A DNA stretch of 30,748 nt from Candidatus Scalinduaceae bacterium (GTDB lineage Bacteria; Planctomycetota; Brocadiia; Brocadiales; Scalinduaceae): positions 1-30,748 of the forward strand of contig JBHICG010000040.1 in the NCBI GenBank assembly GCA_046759445.1, read 5' to 3'. Numbering within the stretch: position 1 is the first letter of the stretch; each line of letters begins with the position of its first letter. The translations under genes were made by a program, and so were the position numbers. Of the stretch, positions 6,100-30,748 are shown in pieces. The notes below the pieces were generated by a model. That model did no database searches and was not told where the DNA came from. It was given only the letters and a program-made list of their open reading frames with translations.

Positions 6100-6136
6100 A
6101 TGTAATTTGAAATTTGTAATTCAAAATTATAAAACC

Positions 6137-6165
6137 TTTTTGGTTCTGACTTGTCAATGTTAGGT
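6137..6165. repeat. dispersed 29-bp repeat, copy 1
   Basis: TTTTTGGTTCTGACTTGTCAATGTTAGGT; 25/29 identical to 29140-29168. Confidence 0.7.
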
Positions 6166-6170
6166 TAATA

Positions 6171-7169
6171 TTATGGATTATTATCTATAGCCTGAATTAA
6201 TTCTAACTTATTTATGGTAGCAGGGCCATTTTTCATTACTGTAACTGAAGCTCCAAAATTGGATAATTTTGCCGCCTGTATGAATGAGGCGCCTGAGGCC
6301 ATACTTAGTGAGAGAAGGCTTGCAACAGTATCTCCAGCGCCTGTTACATCAATAACCTCTCTCTTGCCGTAAACGGGAATCTGTTCAATTCTTCCATCGT
6401 CTTCAAAGAGTGTCATTCCCTGATTGCCCTGTGTGATTAGGACGGCTTTTGTATTCACTTCATTCAAAAGCTGTCTACCTACCTCTAACAAATGATTCTT
6501 ATTATTGATTGTTTTGTTTGTTGCCTCTTCTGCTTCAGATTCGTTTGGAGTGATGATTGTAACGCCCTTAAATTCTTTAACTCTATGTCTCGAATCAGCA
6601 ACTACTAACTTGTCCTTTGCTAATATTTTTATGCGTTTAATAATTGAAGCAGTGATTATGTCATACCCGTAATCGGATGTAATCAATAAATCAATCTTAT
6701 CTTCAATTGTATCGATATAGTCGATGATTTTCTGCTCTACGTTGCCGTCCATAGTAACGTTAGGTTCTTTATCAAAACGTACTACTTGTCTCTTAGTGGT
6801 ATGTGAGTCACCTACCAGAAATCTAGTTTTGGTTATTGTAGTTCTGTCGTTACAGGTAAGCAGTCCTTTTGTGTCTACATCATGATTAGAAAAATAATCT
6901 AAAAGACTTTTGCCATTATTATCTTTTCCAATAAGGCCTATGGGATATACGGTAGCCCCTAATGAAACTATATTATTAATAATATTTCCGGCGCCACCGG
7001 GGAGGATTTCCTCGTTTTCATACTTTGCAACTATTACGGGCGCCTCCCTTGAAAGCTTAAACTGTCTTCCATATACATATACGTCTGCGACAATATCGCC
7101 TATAACGGCTACTTTTGCTTTATTAAATTTTTCAATCAGTGATTTATACAAACTCTTTTCATTATCCAT
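6171..7169 (-). CDS. rfaE1: D-glycero-beta-D-manno-heptose-7-phosphate kinase (HldE domain I, PfkB family)
   Basis: VIGDIVADVY, LSREAPV, PGGAG, TKTR, SDYGY, TPNESEA, DVTGAGDTV; ATG 7169 preferred over 7202. Confidence 0.92.
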   Translation of the reverse strand: MDNEKSLYKSLIEKFNKAKVAVIGDIVADVYVYGRQFKLSREAPVIVAKYENEEILPGGAGNIINNIVSLGATVYPIGLIGKDNNGKSLLDYFSNHDVDTKGLLTCNDRTTITKTRFLVGDSHTTKRQVVRFDKEPNVTMDGNVEQKIIDYIDTIEDKIDLLITSDYGYDIITASIIKRIKILAKDKLVVADSRHRVKEFKGVTIITPNESEAEEATNKTINNKNHLLEVGRQLLNEVNTKAVLITQGNQGMTLFEDDGRIEQIPVYGKREVIDVTGAGDTVASLLSLSMASGASFIQAAKLSNFGASVTVMKNGPATINKLELIQAIDNNP

Positions 7170-10239: not shown

Positions 10240-11614
10240 ATGAAAAACTCTTACAAAGGTTTTAGACAATTATCGGAAGCAGATTTTAAGAGCCTTTGGA
10301 AAACAGCGGTGTTTGTCTTTGATGCAAATGTTCTCTTAAATTTATATCGATACCAGAGTCCAACAAGAGATGATCTGTTAAAAGTTCTTGAGAAGCTGGA
10401 TGATAGGATTTGGATTCCTTATCATGTAGGTCTTGAATTTGAGCGAAACAGATTGATAGTAATAGCAGACCAGAAAAGAAGGTTCTCAGAAGTTAGAAAA
10501 ACCGTTGAAAAGTCAAAAAATAATCTAATTGCAGAGCTGGAGGAATTTTCAACTAAGCAAGCGACATTCATCAATAAATCCAGCGAAACTTGTAGAAGGG
10601 TATGAACAACTAACGAAAGAATTTCTCAATAATCTTGATAAATTGCAGAAAAAGCAGCAAGACCTTACAGATTCCGACCCATTAAGAGAGAAAGTAGAAA
10701 ATCTTTTCGATGGTCGTGTCGGTAGCCCACCAGCAAATCAGGAAATTATAGATAAAATAAACGAAGAAGGAGAAAAACGTTTCGCTCACAAAATTCCTCC
10801 CGGTTTTGAAGATGGTGGCAAAGGTAAAGAAGAAGCAGATGAATTCTTGTGGGGTGGAATATTATATAAAAGAAAATATGGTGACCTTATAATCTGGAAA
10901 CAGATACTTGCTTACGCAAAGAGTTCAAGTATCAAATCTCTTGTTTTTGTTACTGATGACAACAAGGAGGATTGGTGGCAAATAATAGACTCAGATGGCC
11001 CTAAAACAATTGGACCACGGCCTGAGCTTGCTGATGAAATACTTATAGAGGCAGGTGTTGAGACGTTCTATATGTATAACCCAGGAGGCTTCTTAAAATA
11101 CTCCAAAGAACTTCTTCATACTAAAGTATCGGAGGATACAATCAAAGAAGTCAGGGATATTTCTGTCAGCCGATCTAGTGCTAAAATAAGTGCTAGCGAA
11201 TTTAGACGTATAGCAATATCGGCTGAGAAAGCTGTTTATAGATGGGTGAAACTTCGTCATGAAGTAGTTGAGTATGGCCGATATTTATCTCCTAACATTA
11301 TTGCTAGAAGCGTGGATAATAAATATGGGTTCTTTGTAAAGCTTGTGCGAAATCCAAACACATTGGAAATTCCTTTACTAAAACTGATGTATCAATCTGA
11401 ATATCTTATCAAAGAGGAAGACTTTGACGAAATATCTATTGTGCTTGTATTCACTAACATCACATCTATGAATATAGTGACAAAGAATTGTGCAACATTG
11501 ACTGATAAAATGCCTTCAGGTTTAAGAATTGTCATTGGTCTTGGCGAAACAGATAGATCAGGTGACATAATAGACTTCTTCCCTCACGAAGACTTCAGTG
11601 CTGATATAAAATAG
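10240..11614 (+). pseudogene. PIN-like domain (DUF4935-type) protein, frameshifted
   Basis: ORF 10240-10605 has VFVFDANVLLNLYRY and IWIPYHVGLEF; +1 frame ORF continues with IPPGFED, YGDLIIWKQIL, FVTDDNKEDWW; one extra base near 10541-10550. Confidence 0.85.
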
Positions 11615-11789: not shown

Positions 11790-12421
11790 ATTAATGACCA
11801 ATGGATGATTCGTGGTAGTGAATTCTCAAACTGCAACTGCGCATTTGGATGTCCGTGCCAATTTAATTCACCATCAACAAACGGTTATTGAGAGGCCATA
11901 GGCAGCGTGCTGATTGAAGAAGGTAACTTTAATGACATTTCTTTAGATGGGCTTTGCTTTGTCATGCTCCTGAAGTGGCCGGGCGAGGTAGCTGAAGGAA
12001 ACGCCAGCAACAGCTTATTATTGATGAGAGCGCCAACCCTGAACAGCGTGAAGCACTACGCAAGATCGCTCATGGCGAATCCACGGCACCGGGAGCGACG
12101 CATTTTTATGTTTATAACAGCACTATGTCTAAGGTGCATGATACCCTTTATGCACCGATAAAGATAAGCATCGATGTAGAAGCAAGACACGCCCACATTA
12201 AAATCGAAGGCCTTGTCGAATCTACAGGTACGCCGCTGGTTGACCCATTTAGCGGTGAGGAGTCCAGAGCGCGAATTCATTTACCAAATGGTTTTGAATA
12301 TACTTATGCAGAGATGGGGGCAGGCACTTCTAAAATAACGGTTGATATTGAACTTGATCTAAACAATAGTTACGGCCAGTTCAATATCCTGCATATGAAT
12401 CAGGATGGTGTTATCCGCTAG
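11790..12421 (+). pseudogene. DUF1326 domain protein, inactivated
   Basis: WMIRGSEFSNCNCAFGCPCQF motif; TGA at 11889-11891 where Cys is expected; one-base loss near 12003-12005; probable ATG-to-ATT change at 11790. Confidence 0.82.
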
Positions 12422-16811: not shown

Positions 16812-18020
16812 CTACTTTGTTGAGGCTATTTTTGAAGTGCTGTCATTAAAAATGTTTTTGTTTATGTTAGAAAGATTTATCACCTCATTGTAAACTTTTA
16901 TAATTTCTTCACAATTTTTCTCTGCAGGATATTTTTCAGCCTTCTTTCGAGCCGCAATTGATACCCTTTGTCTGAATTCATCATCAAAGAAGAGACTTAT
17001 CTTATTTGTTAATGTCTTGTAATCCAAAGGGTCTTTCAAGACAAAACCCTCTATGCCGTCATCAATCACACCGCTTGCTCCATCAAATACAGTTGTAATA
17101 ACAGGTAGGCCACTTGCCAGAGATTCCGTAACAACTAGAGAGCATATATCGTAAAATGTGGGATGTACATAAAGATCAGATGCTGCGTAATATTTCTCAA
17201 TTTCATTCACATATCCCAAAAATACCAAATTTTCCAGGCAATTTAGTTTTTTTGCTAGTTTACGATATGAAGCATTTCTTCCTCTTCCAATAATTAATGC
17301 CTTGAAGTTCTTATGAGACTTTTTAAGCTCTCCCAGTGACTTTATCAGTATGGCAAGACCTTTCCGCTTGAAGTCATTACTTATGTATGAGATTACGAAT
17401 TCTTCACCTATAGATAGTTTTTCTCTTATAATTCTCCGGAATTGTTCTTTATTGGCTGGATTGAATCTTTGAAGGTCCACACCATTATAGATTACCTTTA
17501 TCTTTTGTGGATTGATATTATGGTATTTTATAATGTCATTCTTTTCTATATCAGATATAGCTATAATCCTTGATACATTATTATTTGTATACTGTTTTTT
17601 GTCCAGCCATAAAAGAAAATTCTCCCTGAGGCTAAAAAATCTGATTACGTGTTTAAGGCATCTATAAAAAGGATTTCTTATAGACACGTAATCCTGTTTA
17701 AGCCATGCTTTTTCCACTCCACAGTGTGGGTTAAAGACGTTCATCCCTAATGCTCTACCAACAACATGTATTATGTCAAAATCATTTTTAACTATCTTTC
17801 GTAAGCTATTTATAACGAATGAGATATCTTTAAGAAATTTTGGGTATCTTATAACTGGGATGGTATGGAAATGTATCAGGTTATTACTGTTTTCCCACTC
17901 GTTAGTAAACACATGCACTTCGTGGCCTCTCTCTGTCAATTGATTTGCAAGATTAGCCAGGTATCTTTCTCCTCCACCCTTTGAGGGTATGAATTTGTAT
18001 ATATTTAAGGCTATTTTCAT
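16812..18020 (-). CDS. glycosyltransferase family 4 (WaaG/RfaG-like), paralog 1
   Basis: GGGERY, VIYNGVD, HPTFYDICSLVVTESLASGLPVIT. Confidence 0.92.
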   Translation of the reverse strand: MKIALNIYKFIPSKGGGERYLANLANQLTERGHEVHVFTNEWENSNNLIHFHTIPVIRYPKFLKDISFVINSLRKIVKNDFDIIHVVGRALGMNVFNPHCGVEKAWLKQDYVSIRNPFYRCLKHVIRFFSLRENFLLWLDKKQYTNNNVSRIIAISDIEKNDIIKYHNINPQKIKVIYNGVDLQRFNPANKEQFRRIIREKLSIGEEFVISYISNDFKRKGLAILIKSLGELKKSHKNFKALIIGRGRNASYRKLAKKLNCLENLVFLGYVNEIEKYYAASDLYVHPTFYDICSLVVTESLASGLPVITTVFDGASGVIDDGIEGFVLKDPLDYKTLTNKISLFFDDEFRQRVSIAARKKAEKYPAEKNCEEIIKVYNEVINLSNINKNIFNDSTSKIASTK

Positions 18021-18138: not shown

Positions 18139-19293
18139 TTAAAAAGATTTAGTTCTCACCTTATTATACACTTCTATAATTTCTTCACAGTTTTTTTCTA
18201 CAGGATATATTTCTGCCTTCTTCCTAGCAGCAGTGGATGTCCTTTGCCTGAATTCATCATCAAAGAAGAGACTTATCTTATTTGCTAATGTCTTGTAATC
18301 CAAAGGGTCTTTCAAGACAAAACCCTCTATGCCGTCATCAATCACACCGCTTGCTCCATCAAATACAGTTGTAATAACAGGTAGGCCACTTGCCAGAGAT
18401 TCCGTAACAACTAGAGAGCATATATCGTAAAATGTGGGATGTACATAAAGATCAGATGCTGCGTAATATTTCTCAATTTCATTCACATATCCCAAAAATA
18501 CCAAATTTTCCAGGCAATTTAGTTTTTTTGCTAGTTTGCGATATGAAGTATCTCTGCCTCTTCCAATAATTAATGCCTTAAAATTCTTATGAGACTTCTT
18601 AAGTTCTCCAAGTGCATTTATCAGAGTAAGAAGGCCCTTCAACCTGAAGTTGTTACTTATGTATAAGATTACAAATTCTTCACCTATAAATAGTTTTTCT
18701 CTTAAAAGTTTACTGAATTCCTTTCTATTGTCAGGTTTGAATCTCTGAATGTCTACACCGTTATAGATTACGTTTATCTTTTGCGGGTTGATATTATGGT
18801 ATTTTATAATGTCGTTCTTTATCATATCGGATATGGCAATAATCTTGGATACATTTTTGCTTGTATACTGTTTCTTGTCCAGCCACAAAAGAAAATTTTC
18901 CCTGAGGCTAAAAAATCTGGTTATGTGTTTAAGGCATCTATAAAAAGGATTTCTTATAGACACGTAATCCTGTTTAAGCCATGCTTTTTCCACTCCACAG
19001 TGTGGGTTAAATACGTTCATCCCTAGAGCCCTGCCAACAACCTGTACAATGTCAAAATCATCTTTAACTATCTTTCTCCAACTGTTAATAACAAATGATA
19101 CTTCTTTAAGGAATTTTGGGTATCTAATAACTGGAACGGTATGGAAGTGTATCAGTTTATGATTTTCCCACTCGCTGGCAAATATGTGTACTTCATGGCC
19201 TCTCTCAGTCAATTGATTTGCAAGATTAGCCAGATATTTTTCTCCTCCGCCCTTTGAGGGTATGAATTTGTATATATTTAAGGCAATTTTCAT
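18139..19293 (-). CDS. glycosyltransferase family 4 (WaaG/RfaG-like), paralog 2
   Basis: Tandem duplicate of 16812-18020 with the same motifs. Confidence 0.92.
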   Translation of the reverse strand: MKIALNIYKFIPSKGGGEKYLANLANQLTERGHEVHIFASEWENHKLIHFHTVPVIRYPKFLKEVSFVINSWRKIVKDDFDIVQVVGRALGMNVFNPHCGVEKAWLKQDYVSIRNPFYRCLKHITRFFSLRENFLLWLDKKQYTSKNVSKIIAISDMIKNDIIKYHNINPQKINVIYNGVDIQRFKPDNRKEFSKLLREKLFIGEEFVILYISNNFRLKGLLTLINALGELKKSHKNFKALIIGRGRDTSYRKLAKKLNCLENLVFLGYVNEIEKYYAASDLYVHPTFYDICSLVVTESLASGLPVITTVFDGASGVIDDGIEGFVLKDPLDYKTLANKISLFFDDEFRQRTSTAARKKAEIYPVEKNCEEIIEVYNKVRTKSF

Positions 19294-22637: not shown

Positions 22638-22688
22638 CTTTAATTTTGTGTAATTCACGTGAAATTCTGTGGTGAATTGATAAGGCAA

Positions 22689-23834
22689 ATGAAAGTACTT
22701 CATCTTTTTAGTGATTGGAAATGGACCGGCCCGGCAGAGCCTGCGCTTAACCTCTGTACGGCATTAAAAAAACGTGGACATGATGTTACCATCGCCTGTG
22801 GAAAGGCCATTGATGATTATCCGTTTCCTCCTGATTCAGAGTCTGTCGAGAAGAGCGCATACGAACGTGGCTTTGTGCCTGTTACCGAATTTAATTTGAG
22901 CAAGCATTTCAGGCTTTTTAAGGCTATTTATGATATTAAAAGGTTATCAGTTTTTATGAATGATGAAGGGTATGATATAGTTCATGTCCATCGTAATCAG
23001 GATCATTTGGTAGGTGGGATAGCTGCGAGACGTACGGGAAGATATTTACCTGTTGTGCGTACGAGTCATGATGGAGTTGCATTGAGAAGAGGTTTGAGAA
23101 ACAGGGTTTGTTTAACCCGACTCACTGATAAATTAATTACGGTTTCAGAAAGGGCAAAGAAGGCAGATGTGAGAAATTTTGGATTGTCTGAAGAAAAGGT
23201 GATTAAGATCGACGCCTCTATAGATTGCGAGCGTTTTAATCCGCATAATGGACGCCTTGACCATAGAGAAAGTTTTGGACTAAAAAAAGACGACGTTGTG
23301 GCAGGTATTATTGCAAGGATTCAAACCCACCGTAGATTTGACGTGCTCTTAAAGGCAATAAAAATCGCATCGCAAGAAGATTCCCGATTACGTTTATTTG
23401 TCATAAGCAGAGGGACTAAAGAAAAACAACTGCTGATAGAACCAGCCAGGGCAATGGGATTGGAAGATGTCGTAATCCATATTGGCTATCGCACGAAAGA
23501 TTATGTAGAAGCCGTTTCATGTATGGATTTTGATATTTTTTTGGTACCCGGTACTGATGGTTCCTGCCGTGCCGTCAGGGAAGTGATGGCGATGGGGAAG
23601 CCCGTTATAGCCGCTAATAGGGGTATATTGCCTGAAATTGTTGATGATAAAGTTACAGGACTTGTCATTGACGACACGCCGGAAAACCTGGCAGCGGCTA
23701 TCCTGAAATTAGTTAAAGATGAGGGACTTAGAAGGGAAATGTCTGAGGCATCACTGAAAAAGGCGCAAGATAAATTTTCTTTAGAATCTATGGCTGTAAG
23801 AGTTGAGAAAGTTTATGAAGGGCTTTACTCGTAA
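22689..23834 (+). CDS. glycosyltransferase family 4
   Basis: MKVLHLFSDWKWTGPAEPA, GTDGSCRAVREVMAMGKPVIA, EIVDDKVTG. Confidence 0.9.
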   Translation: MKVLHLFSDWKWTGPAEPALNLCTALKKRGHDVTIACGKAIDDYPFPPDSESVEKSAYERGFVPVTEFNLSKHFRLFKAIYDIKRLSVFMNDEGYDIVHVHRNQDHLVGGIAARRTGRYLPVVRTSHDGVALRRGLRNRVCLTRLTDKLITVSERAKKADVRNFGLSEEKVIKIDASIDCERFNPHNGRLDHRESFGLKKDDVVAGIIARIQTHRRFDVLLKAIKIASQEDSRLRLFVISRGTKEKQLLIEPARAMGLEDVVIHIGYRTKDYVEAVSCMDFDIFLVPGTDGSCRAVREVMAMGKPVIAANRGILPEIVDDKVTGLVIDDTPENLAAAILKLVKDEGLRREMSEASLKKAQDKFSLESMAVRVEKVYEGLYS

Positions 23835-23983: not shown

Positions 23984-25282
23984 TCAGTTCGCTCTAATCA
24001 AATTAACCGTTATCATCGAGACGGTCAGCGGTAGGGCGAATACTATAAACAGAATTGCTGTTCCCCAGCCTGCGTCAAGCAATACCCCCGCAATAAAGGG
24101 TGAAAGGATTGCCCCAATACGACCAATACCTATTGCCCACCCCATACCTGTGGTTCGGATAGAAGCGGTATAGAGATTCGGGGCCAGTGCATAGAGTCCT
24201 ATCATTGAACCAAACAGGAAAAAGCCGATAAACAAGGAGATTACCAAAGCCGTTGTCAGGCTGGATGTAAGTATGCCAAAAATGATCATTAAGGCTGCAG
24301 TCGCCAACATATACACACCTATAAGTTTTTGCAGATTGAACCTGGATGACATGTAGCCAAGCAGTAAACCACCGACAATACCGCCGACATTGAGTAGCAC
24401 ACCACCGGAAATGCCCTGTTCGGCAGAGAGCCCGGCGGCAACCAATAACTTTGGTGTCCAGCTCAATACAAAATAGAAACTGAACATCACCATAAAAAAC
24501 GACGACCATATGAGCAGGGTAGAAAGCTTGATTGAATCCTTGAACAGACTGACAAAACCCGATGATACAACTTTTTCCTTAAACACCGGTTCTGGCAATG
24601 TCTCTATCTCATCACGACCCATACGACGTAAAAGATCATTCACATGTTTCAGTGCATTACACGGTCTTTTCGCCAGTAGATAATCCATTGATTCAGGAAG
24701 TCGCCAGATGACGATAGGAATCATTATTGCTGACGTCACGGCTCCAAAAACAAAGACAGAACGCCACCCGGTTTGAACAATTAAGAATGCGGCAATGCTA
24801 CCGCCAATGGCAGCCCCGATAGGATAACCCGTTTGCAAAAAGCTCACGGCTAAGCTACGCCATTTATCTGACGCATACTCGGCCACAATCACATTCAAAC
24901 TGGCCAGCATACCGCCTATGCCCACACCTGTGATTGCACGCAAAATAGCAAGTTGAGTCATTCCTTGTGACATGGCAGACAAAAACATGCTAACGCTTAT
25001 AATAATCAGACAAAACAGCGCTATAGTGCGACGGCCATATTTGTCAGCATAGGGAGCAAGAAAGAGAGACCCTCCCGCCATGCCGAAGAGTCCTGCGCTG
25101 AGTAATATGCCTAGTTCAGACCCGGACAACCCCCACTCATTGGAGACGTGGGAGGCAGTAAATGCCATCACTAAAACGTCGAAACCATCCAACATATTGA
25201 TAACCAGGCAGACGGAAATAGCGATAACCTGCAAGGATGACATCGGGCCTTTATGTATGAACTCTTTTATGTCTTGGTTCAT
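23984..25282 (-). CDS. MFS transporter, aromatic acid:H+ symporter (PcaK/BenK-like)
   Basis: LDGFD, ADKYGRR, RAITGVGIGG, AEY, LPES, RTTGMGWAIGIGRIG; many hydrophobic segments. Confidence 0.9.
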   Translation of the reverse strand: MNQDIKEFIHKGPMSSLQVIAISVCLVINMLDGFDVLVMAFTASHVSNEWGLSGSELGILLSAGLFGMAGGSLFLAPYADKYGRRTIALFCLIIISVSMFLSAMSQGMTQLAILRAITGVGIGGMLASLNVIVAEYASDKWRSLAVSFLQTGYPIGAAIGGSIAAFLIVQTGWRSVFVFGAVTSAIMIPIVIWRLPESMDYLLAKRPCNALKHVNDLLRRMGRDEIETLPEPVFKEKVVSSGFVSLFKDSIKLSTLLIWSSFFMVMFSFYFVLSWTPKLLVAAGLSAEQGISGGVLLNVGGIVGGLLLGYMSSRFNLQKLIGVYMLATAALMIIFGILTSSLTTALVISLFIGFFLFGSMIGLYALAPNLYTASIRTTGMGWAIGIGRIGAILSPFIAGVLLDAGWGTAILFIVFALPLTVSMITVNLIRAN

Positions 25283-25343
25283 ATTCTTCCGTTATTATTT
25301 GGAGGAGGTTCGTTATGTAAGGGTTTTCGCTATTTAGATTTTA

Positions 25344-25457
25344 AACATCTTAGATTAACAAAGAATTGAAATCAACAAAAAATGGGTTCCGAACTGATAC
25401 AGGTTGGTGGTTCCGGGCGGGAACGATGTCGGGTTGATAAGATTGAACCATTAAGGG
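25344..25457 (-). repeat. promoter-bearing module, copy A
   Basis: Minus strand TGGTTCAATCTTA end motif (25438-25450) and TTGATT(25375-25370)-N17-TAAGAT(25352-25347). Confidence 0.8.
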
Positions 25458-25485
25458 TCCAGTTGACCGATTTATTAGAGGCGGT

Positions 25486-25569
25486 TCATTCCATTAGTTT
25501 TTCTATGCTGTGTTTAAGTTTTGACAAATCTCTCTCAATAATTCCCCAAACAACCACATTATCTACCAT
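25486..25569 (-). pseudogene. HEPN/DUF86 toxin remnant (C-terminal helix only)
   Basis: MVDNVVVWGIIERDLSKLKHSIEKLME*, overlapping the MNT stop; resembles the DUF86 C-terminus and lacks RxxxxH. Confidence 0.7.
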
Positions 25570-25861
25570 ATATTTTAATCTTATCTCTTTCTATTGCTCT
25601 TTTCAGGTATGGGTTTCTTATAGACCTTGGTGTAAGTAAATCAACTTTCTTACCAAATTTATCTTCAAGAAAGTGAAGAAACCCAAAGTACCTTTCAGAT
25701 ACATTTTCTTCAATGGGGTCTTCAAATTCTATAATTAAATCGATATCATAGTCTTCTTTTTCTTCATTCCTGGCAATGGAACCAAATAACTCAACATATT
25801 TGATCCTATATGTATTACATATATCAGGTAATATTTTTTTTATGTCGTGAATAGTAATCAT
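25559..25861 (-). CDS. minimal nucleotidyltransferase (MNT antitoxin family)
   Basis: LFGSIARNE..DIDLIIEF, LEDKFGKKVDLLT..IRNPYL. Confidence 0.9.
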   Translation of the reverse strand: MITIHDIKKILPDICNTYRIKYVELFGSIARNEEKEDYDIDLIIEFEDPIEENVSERYFGFLHFLEDKFGKKVDLLTPRSIRNPYLKRAIERDKIKIYGR

Positions 25862-25870
25862 TTCTCTTTT

Positions 25871-26079
25871 ATTTAACTTCTAATAGTTAGTATAAGATAT
25901 TCTTACTGTGTTAACATCTTAGAGCAATAAGGTATTGAAATCAATAGAAAACGGGTCTTGGCGATACTTATAGCACATTCCTGCCAGCCTGTTCGAATGG
26001 AATCTGCTCAAACTATGGTACAGGCAGGTGGTTGAATGGGAACAATGTAGGGCTGGTAAGATTGAACCATCAGGGGAAT
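25871..26079 (-). repeat. promoter-bearing module, copy B (with nested CCTGCC..GGCAGG insert)
   Basis: End motif 26057-26069; TTGATT(25944-25939)-N17-TAAGAT(25921-25916); AATATCTTATACTAACTATTAG then GTTAAAT before the MNT ATG. Confidence 0.8.
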
Positions 26080-26233
26080 CTATGACAGAGAAAGTCGAGA
26101 GTGTTTATGACGGACTTTTGCGTGACACTCCAGCAGCTTAAGAGGAAAATAAACAAATGAACGAAAGTAGCCGCTATTCCTATTATTCTAAGGTTTTTTC
26201 ACCCACAATTACTTCGAGGGCTCATACACCCGT

Positions 26234-26842
26234 CTATTTTCCAGCGGCGGCTTGTGCAAATGCGGCACCGATATTACTCAAAAAGTCTTTGGGAATCGCT
26301 ATGGCCGTTTCCCCGAGTTCAAGGAAGTACTGTGCGATCGGACGCATTTTCTCTCGCCGTTGAATGGATTCTACGCGGTATTTTACCTCTCTGAGTAGCT
26401 GGTCACTCTTGAGACCCGAAGCTGTGCAGTGAGTGATTTCGGTGAAAAGGTCGGCGAAGACCTTTTCAACCTGGGTAGGATCCTTCTCGAACAGCTCAGA
26501 TTTCAACGGATAGTAAGTGCTGTCTTCTGCTCCATCCTTGGTGTCTAGCATCGTGAAAAGCACGATTCCGGGTAGACGATTCGGGTCGATCCCAAAAAGA
26601 GAGGCGACACGTGGACTAGGATTTGACGACCCACTTTCGTGATCAAATGGTACGAACGCGAAGAAAAAGATCTTTGCCCTAATGGCAAGAGAGTCAAGCC
26701 ACTTAAAAGATCGTGTTGCATATCGCTTGATTGACTCGTGGCTCTCCCTGTCATCGAACAGCAGAAATGCAAATAACTCTCGCTTATCTTTGAGCTTATT
26801 GAACATATAAGCGAAATCCTCAAAGTTATTGACAGCAATCAT
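26234..26842 (-). CDS. hypothetical protein
   Basis: Open frame with RBS AAGGAG before the ATG at 26842; visibly GC-richer than host genes; GTTAGGT at 26871-26865. Confidence 0.75.
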   Translation of the reverse strand: MIAVNNFEDFAYMFNKLKDKRELFAFLLFDDRESHESIKRYATRSFKWLDSLAIRAKIFFFAFVPFDHESGSSNPSPRVASLFGIDPNRLPGIVLFTMLDTKDGAEDSTYYPLKSELFEKDPTQVEKVFADLFTEITHCTASGLKSDQLLREVKYRVESIQRREKMRPIAQYFLELGETAIAIPKDFLSNIGAAFAQAAAGK

Positions 26843-26882
26843 TGTAGTGTCTCCTTTTCTTAACACCTAACGCGCAGCGCGA

Positions 26883-27050
26883 CCGAACTATTATTTAATA
26901 TATTATATTTATTCTTGAGTTTATTCTTTAAGTAAGATAATAGATTAACAATATACATAAATCAATAAAAAATGAGGCTATGAGCTGGATCAGGGATTAT
27001 GGCTGCTTCGAAACATTTAGGTTTGATATAAGATTGAACCATCAAGGAAT
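26883..27050 (-). repeat. promoter-bearing module, copy C (diverged)
   Basis: End motif 27029-27041; TTGATT(26965-26960)-N17-TATTAT(26942-26937); AATATATTAAATAATA-GTTCGGT. Confidence 0.7.
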
Positions 27051-27051
27051 A

Positions 27052-28908
27052 TTATAGAGAACGCTCTTCCTGTTCAAAAGCCTGCTTTTCTTGTTCGTAT
27101 TTTCCGGTAGTTTCTTCCAGTTGTTTGTAAAGTGTGTCTATACTGGCTTGTGTTTGCTTCGCCGATCTTGACAATGCTGTGATAGTGTTTTTATCCTGTT
27201 CCCGGGAGGCCTTAATCAGGGATTGATTATCATCGTGTAGTTGTTGTTCCATTTCAACGATATTCTTTTCGAGTTCCTCGATTCTCTTTTTATAAGGGGT
27301 CAGAGTTTTTGAACGTCTGGTGATAAATTCAGCCCTTGCTTTTCTTGTGTCCTTCCTATTGATGGCCTTCACTGATTCTCCACGACGTTTGTGTGAACGT
27401 TTGCCGAACGTAATACTCTCCTGGTCATCCCAACCAATCTGTTCAAGGAACTGAGAGTATTTACCTTGAAAGGGAAATACCCTGTCATGGTGAAAGACTA
27501 TCAACTTGTTTGCAATCCTATGGAGTATGTATTCATTGTGTGTGACCATAATTACGGCGCCCTGAAATGTATTGATGGCGTCTATCATGGCATCGCATGA
27601 CTGCATGTCTAAATGGTGAGTGGGCTCGTCAAGGAGAAGAAGATTGGATGGTGTTATGAGTATCTTTCCCAGCAAGACTCTGCATTTCTCGCCACCGGAT
27701 AAAACCTTAATCTTCTTAAGAGCGCTGTCACCGGAAAACATCATAGCGCCACAGATATCTCTGATCCTTTTCCTGTCTATATTAGAATTATTCAAGTATA
27801 TTTCTTCTTCAACCGTAAGCTTATCGTTGAGGCTTGCGGTATTGGCTTGTTCATAATAGCCAATTTTAGCCTGTGGGTGGTTTTTAATCTTTCCCTCTAA
27901 AGGCGATAACTTCCCGGCCAGTAACCTTAATAAAGTTGTCTTACCTTTACCGTTTTGACCTACGATACAAACCCTGTCTCGCTTCTCAACAGCAAATCCG
28001 AGTTGGCTTAATAAGTAAGGGGAGTTGCCATTGTAAGAAAAAGTTATATTGCGTGCCTCTTGTGTATATTCGGCATGAAAAGGCGCTGAATTGAACGAGA
28101 ATGAAAAAGTGGGAATTTTTTCAAGCTTCTTAATTCTCTCCTGTTTTTCAAGTGTTTTTATGCGTGATTGTACCAGACTGGCATGGCGTGCTTTGGCCCT
28201 GAAACTGTTTATAAACTGTTCTGCCTGTTTTCGTTTTTTCTCATCGTTGAGACGTTGCTTTTCATGGATTTCCTCTTCTTTTATGATTTGACTATAATAG
28301 TCTTTAGTAGTTCCCTTAATCTTTCTTACTTTGGAGCGATGAATGCCTATTATGTGTGTTGTGACATTATCCATGAAACCTCTATCGTGGCTTATGACGA
28401 CGACTTCATTCCGCCATGAGTTCAGGAAGTTTGTTAGCCAGCGAATGGAAACAATATCCAGGAAATTGGTTGGCTCATCTAGTAAAAGCAGATTTGGTTC
28501 AGATACAAGGACTTTTGCCAGGTTAAGGCGTATCTGGTAACCACCCGAAAATTCAGACGGGTTACGGCAAAAATCACTTTCTGAAAATCCAAGACCCGAT
28601 AAGATTTTTTTTACCTTCCACTCGTCCTCTTTCTGGCTGTCCGGCAATCCACTGCAACCCTCTTCAAGTACCGTTGGTCTGGTAAAGTGGATATGCTGGT
28701 TCAGGTACCCTATACGGTAATCCTTTGGTATCTTAATAGTACCCTCATCATATTGTTCCTGTCCTGTGAGAAGGCGAAAAAGAGTGGTTTTACCGTGTCC
28801 GTTTCTACCCACCAGCCCGACACGCTCGCGGAGGTTCAGGTTAAAAGTAATATTGTCAAATATAACCTGGTTGCCATATCGTTTGCTTAAGTTTTGTACC
28901 GTAATCAT
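27052..28908 (-). CDS. ABC-F family ATP-binding protein (YheS/Uup-like)
   Basis: Two ABC cassettes (GRNGHGKTT/FSGG/LLLLDEPTN and GQNGKGKTT/LSGGE/LLLLDEPT), linker, C-terminal coiled coil, no TM segments. Confidence 0.95.
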   Translation of the reverse strand: MITVQNLSKRYGNQVIFDNITFNLNLRERVGLVGRNGHGKTTLFRLLTGQEQYDEGTIKIPKDYRIGYLNQHIHFTRPTVLEEGCSGLPDSQKEDEWKVKKILSGLGFSESDFCRNPSEFSGGYQIRLNLAKVLVSEPNLLLLDEPTNFLDIVSIRWLTNFLNSWRNEVVVISHDRGFMDNVTTHIIGIHRSKVRKIKGTTKDYYSQIIKEEEIHEKQRLNDEKKRKQAEQFINSFRAKARHASLVQSRIKTLEKQERIKKLEKIPTFSFSFNSAPFHAEYTQEARNITFSYNGNSPYLLSQLGFAVEKRDRVCIVGQNGKGKTTLLRLLAGKLSPLEGKIKNHPQAKIGYYEQANTASLNDKLTVEEEIYLNNSNIDRKRIRDICGAMMFSGDSALKKIKVLSGGEKCRVLLGKILITPSNLLLLDEPTHHLDMQSCDAMIDAINTFQGAVIMVTHNEYILHRIANKLIVFHHDRVFPFQGKYSQFLEQIGWDDQESITFGKRSHKRRGESVKAINRKDTRKARAEFITRRSKTLTPYKKRIEELEKNIVEMEQQLHDDNQSLIKASREQDKNTITALSRSAKQTQASIDTLYKQLEETTGKYEQEKQAFEQEERSL

Positions 28909-29083
28909 ATAATTTAAAATCTAAAAGAATCTATAATACGTTTATATTGTCTGTATTGCAAAGTGTGTTTTATATTACTTAAAAACGGGAATATCGTCAA
29001 AAAGTTTCTAAGTGACCCTGAAAGAGAAAAGGGAGAGCGTTCTGTAGAAAGTCTAATTATGCCTAAAAAATTGCCTAATTTAG

Positions 29084-29137
29084 TCTCTAAGGAGACAATT
29101 TTCTGTCAGAAAAAGCAAGAAATTGTCTCCTTAGAGA
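29084..29137. repeat. perfect 18-bp inverted repeat
   Basis: TCTCTAAGGAGACAATTT (29084-29101) / AAATTGTCTCCTTAGAGA (29120-29137). Confidence 0.85.
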
Positions 29138-29139
29138 TT

Positions 29140-29168
29140 TTTTTGGTTCTGGCTTGACCAGGTTAGGT
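29140..29168. repeat. dispersed 29-bp repeat, copy 2
   Basis: TTTTTGGTTCTGGCTTGACCAGGTTAGGT; 25/29 identical to 6137-6165. Confidence 0.7.
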
Positions 29169-29264
29169 ATGGGTTAGTATATGTAGTGTGGGAATGAAAT
29201 ACCATTTGGTATAATTTCCAAAATATTGGCTCAGGAATTAACAGCATGAGTAGTGCCGTCCGAG

Positions 29265-29317
29265 ATATAACGAGCAAGGTCAACGGCGAGTTTACAATAG
29301 TTGCAGCGGAGTTATAC
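29265..29317 (-). other. short attC-like site overlapping the stop codon
   Basis: Minus strand GTATAAC (contains the TAA stop)-TCCGCTGCAAC...GCCGTTGACCTTGCTC-GTTATAT, 53 bp. Confidence 0.6.
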
Positions 29318-29905
29318 GGTATCAATCTGGCCATCACTTTTCGCCGGTACTACTATGTGTAGCACACGGTAGTATGACTTCCTGAGATCATAGTACGCCA
29401 TTCCACAGGCAACAGTAAGTAACGTCCCACCGGCGCCGACGAAAATAAATGCCTTCGTTTTTATACCACAATATACTCCGAGCAAGATGAGTCCAGTGAT
29501 TGTAATTAGGGCAAAGTTGAAAACGCTTGAACGAGCTACTCTCATTCGTGATCGGTTGTAGTTGACGAACTCCACTGCCATCTTCGGATCTGCACTAAAG
29601 ATTTTTTGGCGGGTTGTGTGGAACTCGTCTTCAGTCTTCGCTTCTCTGGCAGCGGTGCTTGATTTTGCGGGTGCCTTAATGTGATCATCCAGGCCAGATT
29701 TATCAAGGATGAAATCCCATATTCGGTCGAAGACAACGCCTAACCCATACGAGATTGCAACGATGATGACGACACTAACAGATGGTGCATTGATGATAGG
29801 GGAGAAGGTCTTCGGACCCAAGACCGTCATCCCGATCAGCGAGAGCCACGTTAGGGTTTGAAGCCCTCCGATGACTAGCTCTGCAAAAATGGCAGTGGTA
29901 TTCAT
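29312..29905 (-). CDS. hypothetical membrane protein (about 4 TM), gene-cassette-like
   Basis: 197-aa ORF with two pairs of hydrophobic segments; GC-richer than flanks; bounded by GTTAAGC and an attC-like site. Confidence 0.75.
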   Translation of the reverse strand: MNTTAIFAELVIGGLQTLTWLSLIGMTVLGPKTFSPIINAPSVSVVIIVAISYGLGVVFDRIWDFILDKSGLDDHIKAPAKSSTAAREAKTEDEFHTTRQKIFSADPKMAVEFVNYNRSRMRVARSSVFNFALITITGLILLGVYCGIKTKAFIFVGAGGTLLTVACGMAYYDLRKSYYRVLHIVVPAKSDGQIDTV

Positions 29906-29924
29906 TTGGAATCGTAACTATACC

Positions 29925-30005
29925 GCTTAACTGTAATATAATATATTTTGGTTATAATAACTTTGTGACTTTCAACATCTTAGATCAATAAAGTACTGAA
30001 ATCAA
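29925..30005 (-). repeat. promoter-bearing module, copy D (truncated) with attI-like site
   Basis: TTGATT(30005-30000)-N17-TAAGAT(29982-29977); AATATATTATATTACA-GTTAAGC (29931-29925). Confidence 0.75.
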
Positions 30006-30016
30006 TTATATAATTT

Positions 30017-30748
30017 TCACTTCCACACCAAATAATCTTCTATTGCGAGATAATCGAGTCCGCAACCATAAAATGTCATTATTGCATCACGGGGTGTGCA
30101 AACTATTGGCTGACCTGCCACGTTGAAACTGGTATTGAGAACGGCCGGTACTCCCGTTAGCTTTTTAAATTCATTGATTAGGTCCCAATACTTTGGAAAT
30201 ATTTCTTTTCTGACCGTCTGCACCCTTATAGTGTTATCTACATGCGCAGCCGACACTATATCGGGAACTTTTTCCTCAACACCTTGAAATGCAATTATCA
30301 TAAATGGTGAATTGTAAGGATTCTTTACGTAGTCATGGTAGTCGTTTTCTATAAATGATGGAGCGAAAGGTCTCCACGGTTCCCGTCCTTTTATGCCTTT
30401 GTTTACAATATCCTTCATATCTTTGTTTTTTGGATTTGCGAGTATGCTTCTACCGCCAAGCGCCCGTGGACCAAATTCCATCCTTCCCTGAAACCAACCT
30501 ATAGTCTTGTTTTCTGCAATCAGTGTGGCAACTTCTTTAGCTATATCGTTACAACGTTTATGATTATTAAGTTTGGACTTTTTTAGTTCATGTTCAACTT
30601 GTTCGTTAGTGTAATCAGGACCGTAATATGGATGTTCTAGAACAATATTGGGTCTATGTCCTGTAACATCTGTGTGGACACTTAGGGCTGCCCCTAATGC
30701 GGTACCCACGTCATGAGCAGCAGGCTGAATAAATATATTATCAACATG
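30017..30748 (-). CDS. carbamoyltransferase (NodU/CmcH family), C-terminal part; 5' end outside window
   Basis: FIQPAAHDVGTALGAA, GWFQGRMEFGPRALGGRSILA, REPWRPFAPS, HVDNTIRVQTV, LNTSFN; frame open to the window edge. Confidence 0.93.
   Translation of the reverse strand, partial: HVDNIFIQPAAHDVGTALGAALSVHTDVTGHRPNIVLEHPYYGPDYTNEQVEHELKKSKLNNHKRCNDIAKEVATLIAENKTIGWFQGRMEFGPRALGGRSILANPKNKDMKDIVNKGIKGREPWRPFAPSFIENDYHDYVKNPYNSPFMIIAFQGVEEKVPDIVSAAHVDNTIRVQTVRKEIFPKYWDLINEFKKLTGVPAVLNTSFNVAGQPIVCTPRDAIMTFYGCGLDYLAIEDYLVWK

Follow-up and report, generated by a model that had tools for sequence, protein, structure and literature searches.

Diverged copies of a promoter-like block head stacked accessory genes in a strain-variable island of a Scalindua-family planctomycete

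Introduction

Putative mobile promoters have been described as sequences that are at least 80% identical across 50 nucleotides (nt) or more upstream of genes that are not homologous (Matus-Garcia, Nijveen and van Passel 2012; commentary in PMC3575422). Integrons, according to PMC4889954, hold gene cassettes that rarely contain promoters and depend on one promoter, Pc, and their attC sites are built from R and L boxes with unpaired central spacers and extrahelical bases; the same source reports integrons from Planctomycetes. In this study, we describe a promoter-like block that occurs four times near the right end of a 30,748-nt stretch of contig JBHICG010000040.1, from a Candidatus Scalinduaceae bacterium. 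The whole of this stretch was analysed and is called the window.

The integron core site is GTTRRRY and is cut at G/TT. ISCR 'common regions', which encode an IS91-type transposase, carry outward promoters next to captured genes. The original prediction, made from the letters of the window, had taken the block for a dispersed attI-like platform that captures and expresses cassettes by means of an integrase supplied in trans. The reading that we prefer, and to which we give an even chance, is that a single sigma-70-type promoter block gave rise to all four copies, which are homologous but have diverged and head stacked accessory units in a recombining, strain-variable island.

Copies of the Promoter-like Block

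The pattern TTGATT-N17-TA(A/T)(G/T)AT was found on the minus strand at 25375-25347 (copy A), 25944-25916 (copy B), 26965-26937 (copy C) and 30005-29977 (copy D). The spacer is 17 nt long in 4/4 copies, within the 16-18 nt of sigma-70 promoters, and each copy lies precisely where the original prediction had placed it. TTGATT-N17-TAWKAT matched the window five times against 0.09 matches expected, and five matches were reached in 0/100 shuffles. A repeat finder grouped the four copies into one 44-nt family (D3) with 73-82% identity to the reference copy, and their alignment spans a T-rich tract, both hexamers and the spacer. The longest similarity between two copies within the window joins A and B, with 77.8% identity over 63 nt.

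Two core types were distinguished: type 1, TTGATTTCAATnCTTTATTnATCTAAGATGTT, in copies A, B and D, and type 2, TTGATTTATGTATATTGTTAATCTATTATCTT, in copy C. Common to both are the −35 hexamer, TTnTTAATC in the 3' half of the spacer before the −10 hexamer, and the TAnnAT frame, a pattern expected if promoter function constrains the sequence. The two hexamers at 17 nt and the kept spacer half are consistent with the promoter-like block that had been proposed. TTGATT and TAAGAT each agree with the promoter consensus at 4/6 bases, and a generic promoter scan at a threshold of 9/12 listed copy C alone among the four.

The fifth match to the pattern lies at 16708-16680 on the minus strand, 84 nt upstream of the start codon of a GDSL-lipase gene, and reads TTGATT-N17-TATTAT with an unrelated spacer. 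Judged from this match, the hexamers TTGATT and TATTAT may lie near the ordinary promoter consensus of the organism, as its sequence suggests.

Relatives and Gene Content

A genome scan returned 73 loci for a loose pattern of 20 bases to which all four copies conform. Real matches came from Scalinduaceae Maj_2_bin.64 (loci L036 and L037, on one contig), Candidatus Scalindua sediminis (L040) and Candidatus Scalindua rubra (L070); these matches assign the window to an anammox planctomycete of the Scalindua family. The other 69 loci belong to unrelated A+T-rich genomes and scored at most 16 against a core profile, versus 31-44 for the ten real copies. As the profile was built from these same ten copies, their scores follow by construction, and the informative part is that no further copy emerged. 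The comparison covers three syntenic genomes, the window included, and one further copy, and the copy number and spread in the lineage are lower bounds.

L036 and L040 are syntenic with the window, with glycosyltransferase, ABC-F and carbamoyltransferase genes 86-91% identical. The MFS gene and two orphan genes of the window, encoding 202 and 197 amino acids (aa), are absent from both syntenic relatives. Between the anchors, S. sediminis holds nothing more than an intact MNT/HEPN pair and a remnant that lacks a gene, and Maj_2 holds BrnT/BrnA, an SNase-HhH nuclease and a 353-aa orphan. S. rubra has one copy, at another locus, with a STAND NTPase gene behind it. Gene content behind the blocks thus varies between related genomes and is accessory, as the original prediction had anticipated. 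The data establish homology of the copies and synteny of the locus with two other genomes, in which it carries different genes, and the differences begin and end at the edges of a larger module of which the block is part.

From genome to genome, core identity is 92-98%, which equals or exceeds that of the coding genes on either side. Copy C is 93.9% identical over 99 nt to a copy (L036c) that heads an unrelated gene, copy A is 92.2% identical to L036b over 51 nt, and the two L040 copies (L040a and L040b) are 90.7% identical over 129 nt. Modules are closer within one genome than orthologous modules are between genomes (L036a/L036b, 93% over 327 nt; L040a/L040b, 91% over 129 nt), which fits ongoing exchange between modules. 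An Rfam search of the window, L036, L040 and L070 gave seven matches, all below the gathering score and none on the module, and a comparison of positions 25283-27060 with plasmid and phage records gave no match.

The related loci come from metagenome-assembled genomes, and an assembler could have strung alternative strain alleles together at a repeat; stacked alleles are what such an error would be expected to yield. However, the exact words common to the window copies are 12-13 bases long, too short to mislead an assembler, and the artefact was rejected on this ground. Stacks are present in three independent assemblies, and a glycosyltransferase relic and a HEPN deletion, both described below, are evolutionary scars. 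The chance that the stack is an artefact is next to negligible.

Nine of the ten copies sit in the one syntenic variable locus, and the remaining 25 kb of the window contain no part of the module; the claimed dispersal is not supported. A dispersed repeat family was rejected for the DNA compared, with no further copies in the window, in the L070 flanks or among the 69 non-Scalinduaceae loci, where the matches are chance ones. The strict pattern gave 1-2 matches per Scalinduaceae genome with matches and none in other Scalinduaceae representatives.

This distribution also bears on the possibility that the block or module is a mobile element, small and non-autonomous, whose promoter points outward and which lands before resident genes in the manner of Correia or REPIN sequences, the variability of the island being a separate matter. 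Promoter-bearing mobile elements are known (PMC3575422), the copies share defined ends before unrelated genes and reach a second locus in S. rubra, and the region contains other small repeats with inverted ends. However, besides the absence of copies from the rest of the window and from the L070 flanks and the few matches to the strict pattern, the block has neither terminal inverted repeats nor target duplications, no gene was seen both with and without a block, and the block and gene are jointly absent from the copy D site in the relatives. All ten blocks, in the window and in the relatives, face the downstream gene. We consider such an element improbable.

Among the small repeats of the region is a ~200-base element with inverted AATTGAGCTATTT ends and an interior of the 'gtcattgcga...cgcaatgac' type, found at L036 462-674 and 4076-4250 and at L040 ~6130-6260. 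It is inserted between ATACCTG and TAGRCATAATT, and one copy lies between a promoter block and the SNase gene. The four matches to AATTGAGCTATTT in L036 form two inverted pairs.

Anatomy of the Module

The anatomy of the module was derived from all ten copies, four in the window and the remainder in L036/L037, L040 and L070. Read in the direction of the gene, it opens with (a) a left motif, ATTCCYTGATGGTTCAATCTTA, a short way past the point where the upstream gene stops. This is followed by (b) G+C-rich units, for example CCAGCCCGAC...TCTGGCGGGTA, which take up 60-350 nt and are split in L036 by a nested small element, and by (c) a T-rich tract and (d) the core. In 8/10 copies, (e) a second box, AATATCTTATAyTAAnnGTT with variants, lies 20-35 nt past the core and ends in GTT (ATT in copy B). 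Such a box had been claimed for three window copies, and it ends in GTT in D and C and in ATT in B; copy A has no such box.

In the scheme that we propose, the promoter block would comprise the T-rich tract, the −35 hexamer TTGATT, the 17-nt spacer, the −10 hexamer TAAGAT or TATTAT and, in three window copies, the second TATAyT box with its GTT end. A full unit would run from ATTCCYTGATGGTTCAATCTTA through G+C-rich hairpin remnants and the promoter block to the gene or genes and a tail. In S. rubra (L070 3905-3985, minus strand), a ~130-nt G+C-rich element with inverted CTTCGAC ends sits between core and second box, which implies that core and box were once a single unit.

The upstream end motif claimed for three copies was recovered as three exact occurrences of TGGTTCAATCTTA, at 25450-25438, 26069-26057 and 27041-27029. 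At up to two mismatches there were seven matches, three of them exact, against 1.68 expected. In 2/8 copies the left motif forms the outer arm of a stable hairpin (z of −4.0 and −3.5, with 1/200 shuffles as good in each case), in which the stem base, GGTTCAATCT / AGAyTGAACC, is kept and the interior is unrelated. Folding did not reveal this hairpin in the three window copies. A small open reading frame (ORF) that starts from an ATG inside the left motif (MVQSY...) was rejected: its lengths and sequences vary among copies, and its substitutions lack third-position bias.

Junction at GTT

Homology stops directly after the second box in 8/10 copies, so that the break expected at GTT was indeed found; the junction is GTT in 7/8 and ATT in 1/8. 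The two copies that lack a second box, A and L036-4001, have common sequence no further than TAAGATGTTTAAAATC. Over 28 pairs, ungapped identity was 0.64 for the 20 nt before the junction versus 0.30 for the 20 nt after it. Two pairs alone are still alike past this point: copy B with L040-4032, which is orthologous, and copy C with L040-3115. In the latter pair the same 15 nt, CGRTCGCGCTGCGCG, follow the junction although the block before it is of type 2 in the window and of type 1 in L040, and this same start behind two block types places the breakpoint exactly at GTT. One junction is common to six unrelated genes, namely the 197-aa, 202-aa, MNT, BrnT, 353-aa and STAND NTPase genes.

From a reading of the aligned sequences, the TATAyT hexamer ends 6-7 nt before the junction in 6/8 copies. 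By the usual spacing between a −10 hexamer and a transcription start, the block would end at about the position where a transcript would begin.

A G+C-rich palindrome, TCGCGCTGCGCG, stands directly after GTT at 26871-26885 in the window and at ~3037-3051 in L040, behind different block types. In the window, the palindrome is followed by GTTAGGT, which matches the integron core pattern perfectly.

A shared operator offers another account of the kept sequence: one regulator of all the genes would maintain the spacer and the TAAGA(T) half-sites, the copies having arisen by ordinary local duplication. The 3' half of the spacer, TTnTTAATC, is kept between types 1 and 2, TAAGAT/ATCTTA half-sites recur, and the second box of the copy B type contains a perfect 15-nt palindrome. 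However, the genes are functionally unrelated and differ between genomes, unlike a regulon, and duplication leaves unaccounted for the unrelated sequence that begins from one fixed base. We regard an operator as very improbable.

The junction also invites an integron-like explanation, in which a recombinase encoded elsewhere would join promoterless genes at G/TT or recombine the left-motif hairpin, the modules serving as sites and promoters. The seven GTT junctions and one ATT junction with unrelated sequence straight after them, and the 15-nt start found behind two block types, agree with such capture. In a post hoc count, the RRRY positions after GTT were matched at 18/24 positions over six independent junctions, 2/6 of them perfectly. 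The gene content, with toxin-antitoxin pairs, orphans and small co-directional proteins, is typical of chromosomal cassette arrays, and the left-motif hairpin of 2/8 copies, with its kept stem base and unrelated interior, could be a further site. Integrons are also reported from Planctomycetes (PMC4889954).

Several results oppose this explanation. Among the 70 ORFs of at least 60 aa in the 30.7-kb window, none encodes an integrase, a transposase, a Phage_integrase domain or another recombinase domain, in agreement with the claim that no integrase lies nearby; as the window ends 743 bases past copy D, such a gene could lie farther out. When a scan for RYYYAAC...GTTRRRY pairs was combined with folding, neither the modules nor the stretches behind the genes showed a consistently placed site or a consistent R''/R' pair with L boxes. 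Accordingly, it yielded none of the attC-like sites that make up a CALIN (at least two attC sites without an integrase). The stem base of the left-motif hairpin has AAT/ATT versus AAC/GTT in attC. Every unit has its own promoter block, as opposed to the promoter-poor cassettes described in PMC4889954, and at copy D the block is itself part of the insert.

The one attC-like candidate, at 29317-29265 by the stop codon of the 197-aa gene, is equalled by matches inside coding regions. Attempts to fold blocks and modules in an attC-like way, in 14 single-stranded DNA folds (three blocks also on the reverse strand, and this candidate), gave z from −0.66 to +1.21, no better than shuffles.

We therefore consider integron-like capture unlikely, though worth keeping in view. 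A more specific form of it is doubtful in slightly greater measure: a previously undescribed anammox Planctomycetes gene-capture system in which a trans-acting recombinase would join promoterless foreign genes to a portable promoter module at a fixed GTT, close to the expected transcript start, and the GGTTCAATCT hairpin would be the second site, and every cassette would have its own promoter. These data do not demonstrate an attI platform served by an integrase in trans and contradict it in part: block D was itself inserted, no attC-like partner was found behind the genes, and the blocks fold no better than shuffles. What is supported of the earlier interpretation is the promoter-like block, the variable accessory genes and the break at GTT, while its dispersal and its role as an attI capture platform are not supported. 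Titles and abstract starts in the literature gave no relevant paper linking Scalindua to integrons, and nothing was found there on anammox transcription start maps or on Scalindua islands.

Insertion of Copy D and Recurrent Breakpoints

The diverged promoter block of our preferred reading can be followed into an insertion at copy D. After the carbamoyltransferase stop codon, L036 and L040 both have an empty site, ...GAAGTGAAAATTATATAA / CCTGACAC (also written ...GAAAATTATATAA / CCTGACAC), and at the same point the window reads ...TATATAA / TTGATTTCAG. Block D starts exactly where homology to these empty sites ends, and the ancestral spacer returns 785 bases on. The empty site in two relatives makes block D part of the inserted DNA, which arrived together with the gene.

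Possibly, the insert was a circle with a single module and gene that opened a little upstream of TTGATT and entered the chromosome via 8-11 shared bases. In its last 30 nt, the insert is similar to sequence found ahead of other cores (nine comparisons; p = 0.006, 0.016 and 0.07, the others at least 0.08). No tRNA gene or tRNA fragment was found as an integration site.

An 18-bp near-perfect inverted repeat at 29083-29135 forms a very stable hairpin (z = −6.35, 0/200 shuffles as good). Its Rfam matches are sub-threshold and to microRNA models only, and it stands at a site where the relatives hold the ~200-base element. A 29-nt repeat with 86% identity links 6137-6165, in the spacer after a pfkB kinase gene, to 29140-29168, in the tail of the copy D insert.

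Three breakpoints recur. The first (i) lies after the left motif: in all three genomes, homology of the ABC-F flank stops at 27029, the last base of TGGTTCAATCTTA. The second (ii) lies at most ~12 nt upstream of TTGATT, where L036a and L036b, alike over 327 nt at 93% including the nested element, pass into type-2 and type-1 cores, respectively; copy D and the L070 copy begin at this breakpoint. The third (iii) lies after GTT.

A relic of the glycosyltransferase 3' end is joined via ATTC to the left motif upstream of block B, which indicates that everything between block B and the MFS gene, both included, was added at a former end of the island. The tails of four units have a common short motif, GAATAGAGGAATAGG with variants, that also adjoins the glycosyltransferase gene. 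This tail motif suggests that the units may be stacked copies of one slot with its two flanks.

Features and Neighbouring Genes of the Window

Pfam scans identified the window as a cluster for the synthesis of polysaccharide or lipopolysaccharide: glycosyltransferases are numerous, and sugar-nucleotide enzymes, GDSL esterases and a kinase of the Kdo type are also encoded. The module region occupies its right end, and the window extends just 743 bases past copy D. On the minus strand the order is carbamoyltransferase, D, 197-aa orphan, ABC-F ATPase, C, 202-aa orphan, B, MNT/HEPN remnant, A and MFS, and this run ends against a convergent group-1 glycosyltransferase gene. Coordinates are collected in Table 1.

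Table 1. Positions of blocks, module parts, insertion borders and genes at the right end of the window.
Feature	Position	Strand	Remarks
Copy D promoter block	29929..30005	-	no T-tract; -35 TTGATT 30005-30000; 17-nt spacer; -10 TAAGAT 29982-29977; second box ends GTT 29931-29929
Copy C promoter block, type 2 core	26886..26965	-	-10 TATTAT; second box ends GTT 26888-26886
Copy B promoter block, type 1 core	25882..25944	-	second box ends ATT 25884-25882 and holds palindrome ATAAGAATATCTTAT; L040 ortholog has GTT
Copy A promoter block, type 1 core	25337..25375	-	no second box; homology to L036 copy stops after TAAGATGTTTAAAATC (92% over 51 nt)
Insert of ~785 bases (block D, 197-aa gene, tail)	29221..30005	-	absent from both relatives
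Left direct repeat TGAAAATTATATAA	30006..30019	-	overlaps carbamoyltransferase stop codon
Right direct repeat TGGAAATTATA	29210..29220	-	ancestral spacer resumes after it
Left motif ATTCCTTGATGGTTCAATCTTA	27029..27050	-	directly after ABC-F stop codon; 27029 is the last base of ABC-F flank homology in the three genomes
Left motif copy upstream of block B	26057..26078	-	joined to relic of glycosyltransferase 3' end
Left motif copy upstream of block A	25438..25450	-	after HEPN remnant
Relic of glycosyltransferase 3' end and downstream spacer	26076..26178	-	between 202-aa gene and block B; repeat family D8; 82% over 104 nt to L036, 91% over 44 nt to L040
Carbamoyltransferase gene, 3' part, conserved	30017..30748	-	upstream neighbour of copy D; Pfam and synteny
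ABC-F type ATPase gene, conserved	27052..28908	-	left anchor of variable stretch; Pfam and synteny
Group-1 glycosyltransferase gene, conserved	22659..23834	+	right anchor of variable stretch, convergent; Pfam and synteny
MFS transporter gene behind block A	23984..25282	-	GC 41-49%; missing in both syntenic relatives
MNT nucleotidyltransferase (antitoxin-type) gene behind block B	25559..25861	-	mid-part GC 27-31%
HEPN (HepT-like) partner-gene remnant	25486..25571	-	~246 bases fewer than L040
Orphan 202-aa gene behind block C	26234..26842	-	GC ~49% across middle
Orphan 197-aa membrane-like gene behind block D	29312..29905	-	GC 46-50% across middle

Across their middles, the three genes absent from the relatives have a GC of 45-50%, versus 36-44% in the conserved flanks; the MNT gene stands apart with its low mid-part value. 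The 202-aa orphan has four relatives in 5.8 billion proteins, all unnamed, and the 197-aa orphan has 28, likewise unnamed; for both, the relatives lie mostly on short contigs. Look-alike clusters of the two orphans are recorded mainly from other phyla, which we offer as a lead only. For the 202-aa orphan, the Atlas model has a fold similar to thioredoxin-like domains and to a portion of long proteins with TIR domains (TM by query 0.61). As a lead only, this predicted structure hints that the protein may be a defence-related accessory domain.

The HEPN toxin gene is intact in Ca. S. sediminis (111 aa; L040 3322-3657). In the window, ~246 bases were lost between two short ATATGG repeats, a deletion that leaves an orphan MNT antitoxin gene. 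Elsewhere in the cluster, tandem paralogous group-1 glycosyltransferase genes at 16812-18020 and 18139-19293 share 300 nt at 94% and 137 nt at 89%. A PIN_8 domain gene (10240-11614) consists of two overlapping ORFs and a DUF1326 gene (11907-12421) is split in two; both are probably frameshifted pseudogenes.

Discussion

The copies are most simply read as a reused promoter block, and mobile promoters have already been described (PMC3575422). According to the reading that we prefer, the block would transcribe whatever lies behind it, and units would be gained, lost and stacked by recombination through the repeated modules. This could proceed by general recombination between modules or by integration of module-bearing circular or linear DNA, sometimes via microhomology of a few bases, and a canonical integron would not be required for the stack.

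Several points weigh against this reading. The promoter call comes from consensus only, and general recombination leaves six unrelated genes joined at one GTT unaccounted for. The similarity of the copy D tail is short, A+T-rich and modest after allowing for nine comparisons, and the direct repeat at copy D could also have arisen as a transposase's target duplication or represent the core site for a site-specific recombinase. The evidence comes from three syntenic genomes and a single additional copy.

Were the block to act as a promoter in the cell, newly acquired genes would be expressed at once in a slow-growing, uncultured lineage. The architecture is cassette-like, and standard integron tools would not flag it. 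A fixed junction before six unrelated genes bears on how genes and signals for recombination or expression first join into cassettes. Should the capture system prove true, it would represent integron-like arrays in which each cassette is expressed from its own promoter copy. If, on the other hand, the junction arose by general recombination and selection, the locus would be a clear case of promoter reuse in a replacement island, useful for annotation and unsurprising.

Comparison with Known Systems

Like integron arrays and CALIN, the locus holds co-directional small accessory genes, toxin-antitoxin pairs and orphans among them, whose content differs between close relatives. It also has a repeat at every gene junction, GTT junctions and, as in CALIN, no adjacent integrase. 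In contrast, the repeat is here a promoter-like duplex feature and not a folding attC, each unit has a promoter where integrons have one Pc, and the repeat is a mosaic of 100-400 nt that travelled with the gene at copy D.

Correia, ERIC and REPIN sequences, all named in PMC3575422, are likewise short intergenic repeats able to drive their neighbours, and the left-motif hairpin of 2/8 copies is REPIN-like. Unlike them, the block has no terminal inverted repeats and makes no target duplication, and no dispersed high-copy family was seen in the DNA compared.

In ISCR elements, too, a conserved sequence with a precise end abuts and expresses diverse captured genes; however, the 70 ORFs of the window include no transposase of the IS91 type. 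Replacement islands and hotspots resemble the locus in having variable accessory or defence-type genes between conserved anchors, with turnover by flank recombination. To our knowledge, they do not repeat one promoter block before each gene with a fixed junction.

The likeness to putative mobile promoters lies in highly similar upstream sequence before unrelated genes, within and between genomes. The published threshold is reached by copy C with L036c, by L040a with L040b and by copy A with L036b, and pairs within the window fall below it. Unlike mobile promoters, the copies described here are stacked in one variable locus, end at a fixed base and are tied to the gain and loss of genes. The locus thus goes beyond the described cases in three respects: blocks are stacked in one replaceable island, gene units are gained and lost with them, and six unrelated genes share one junction.

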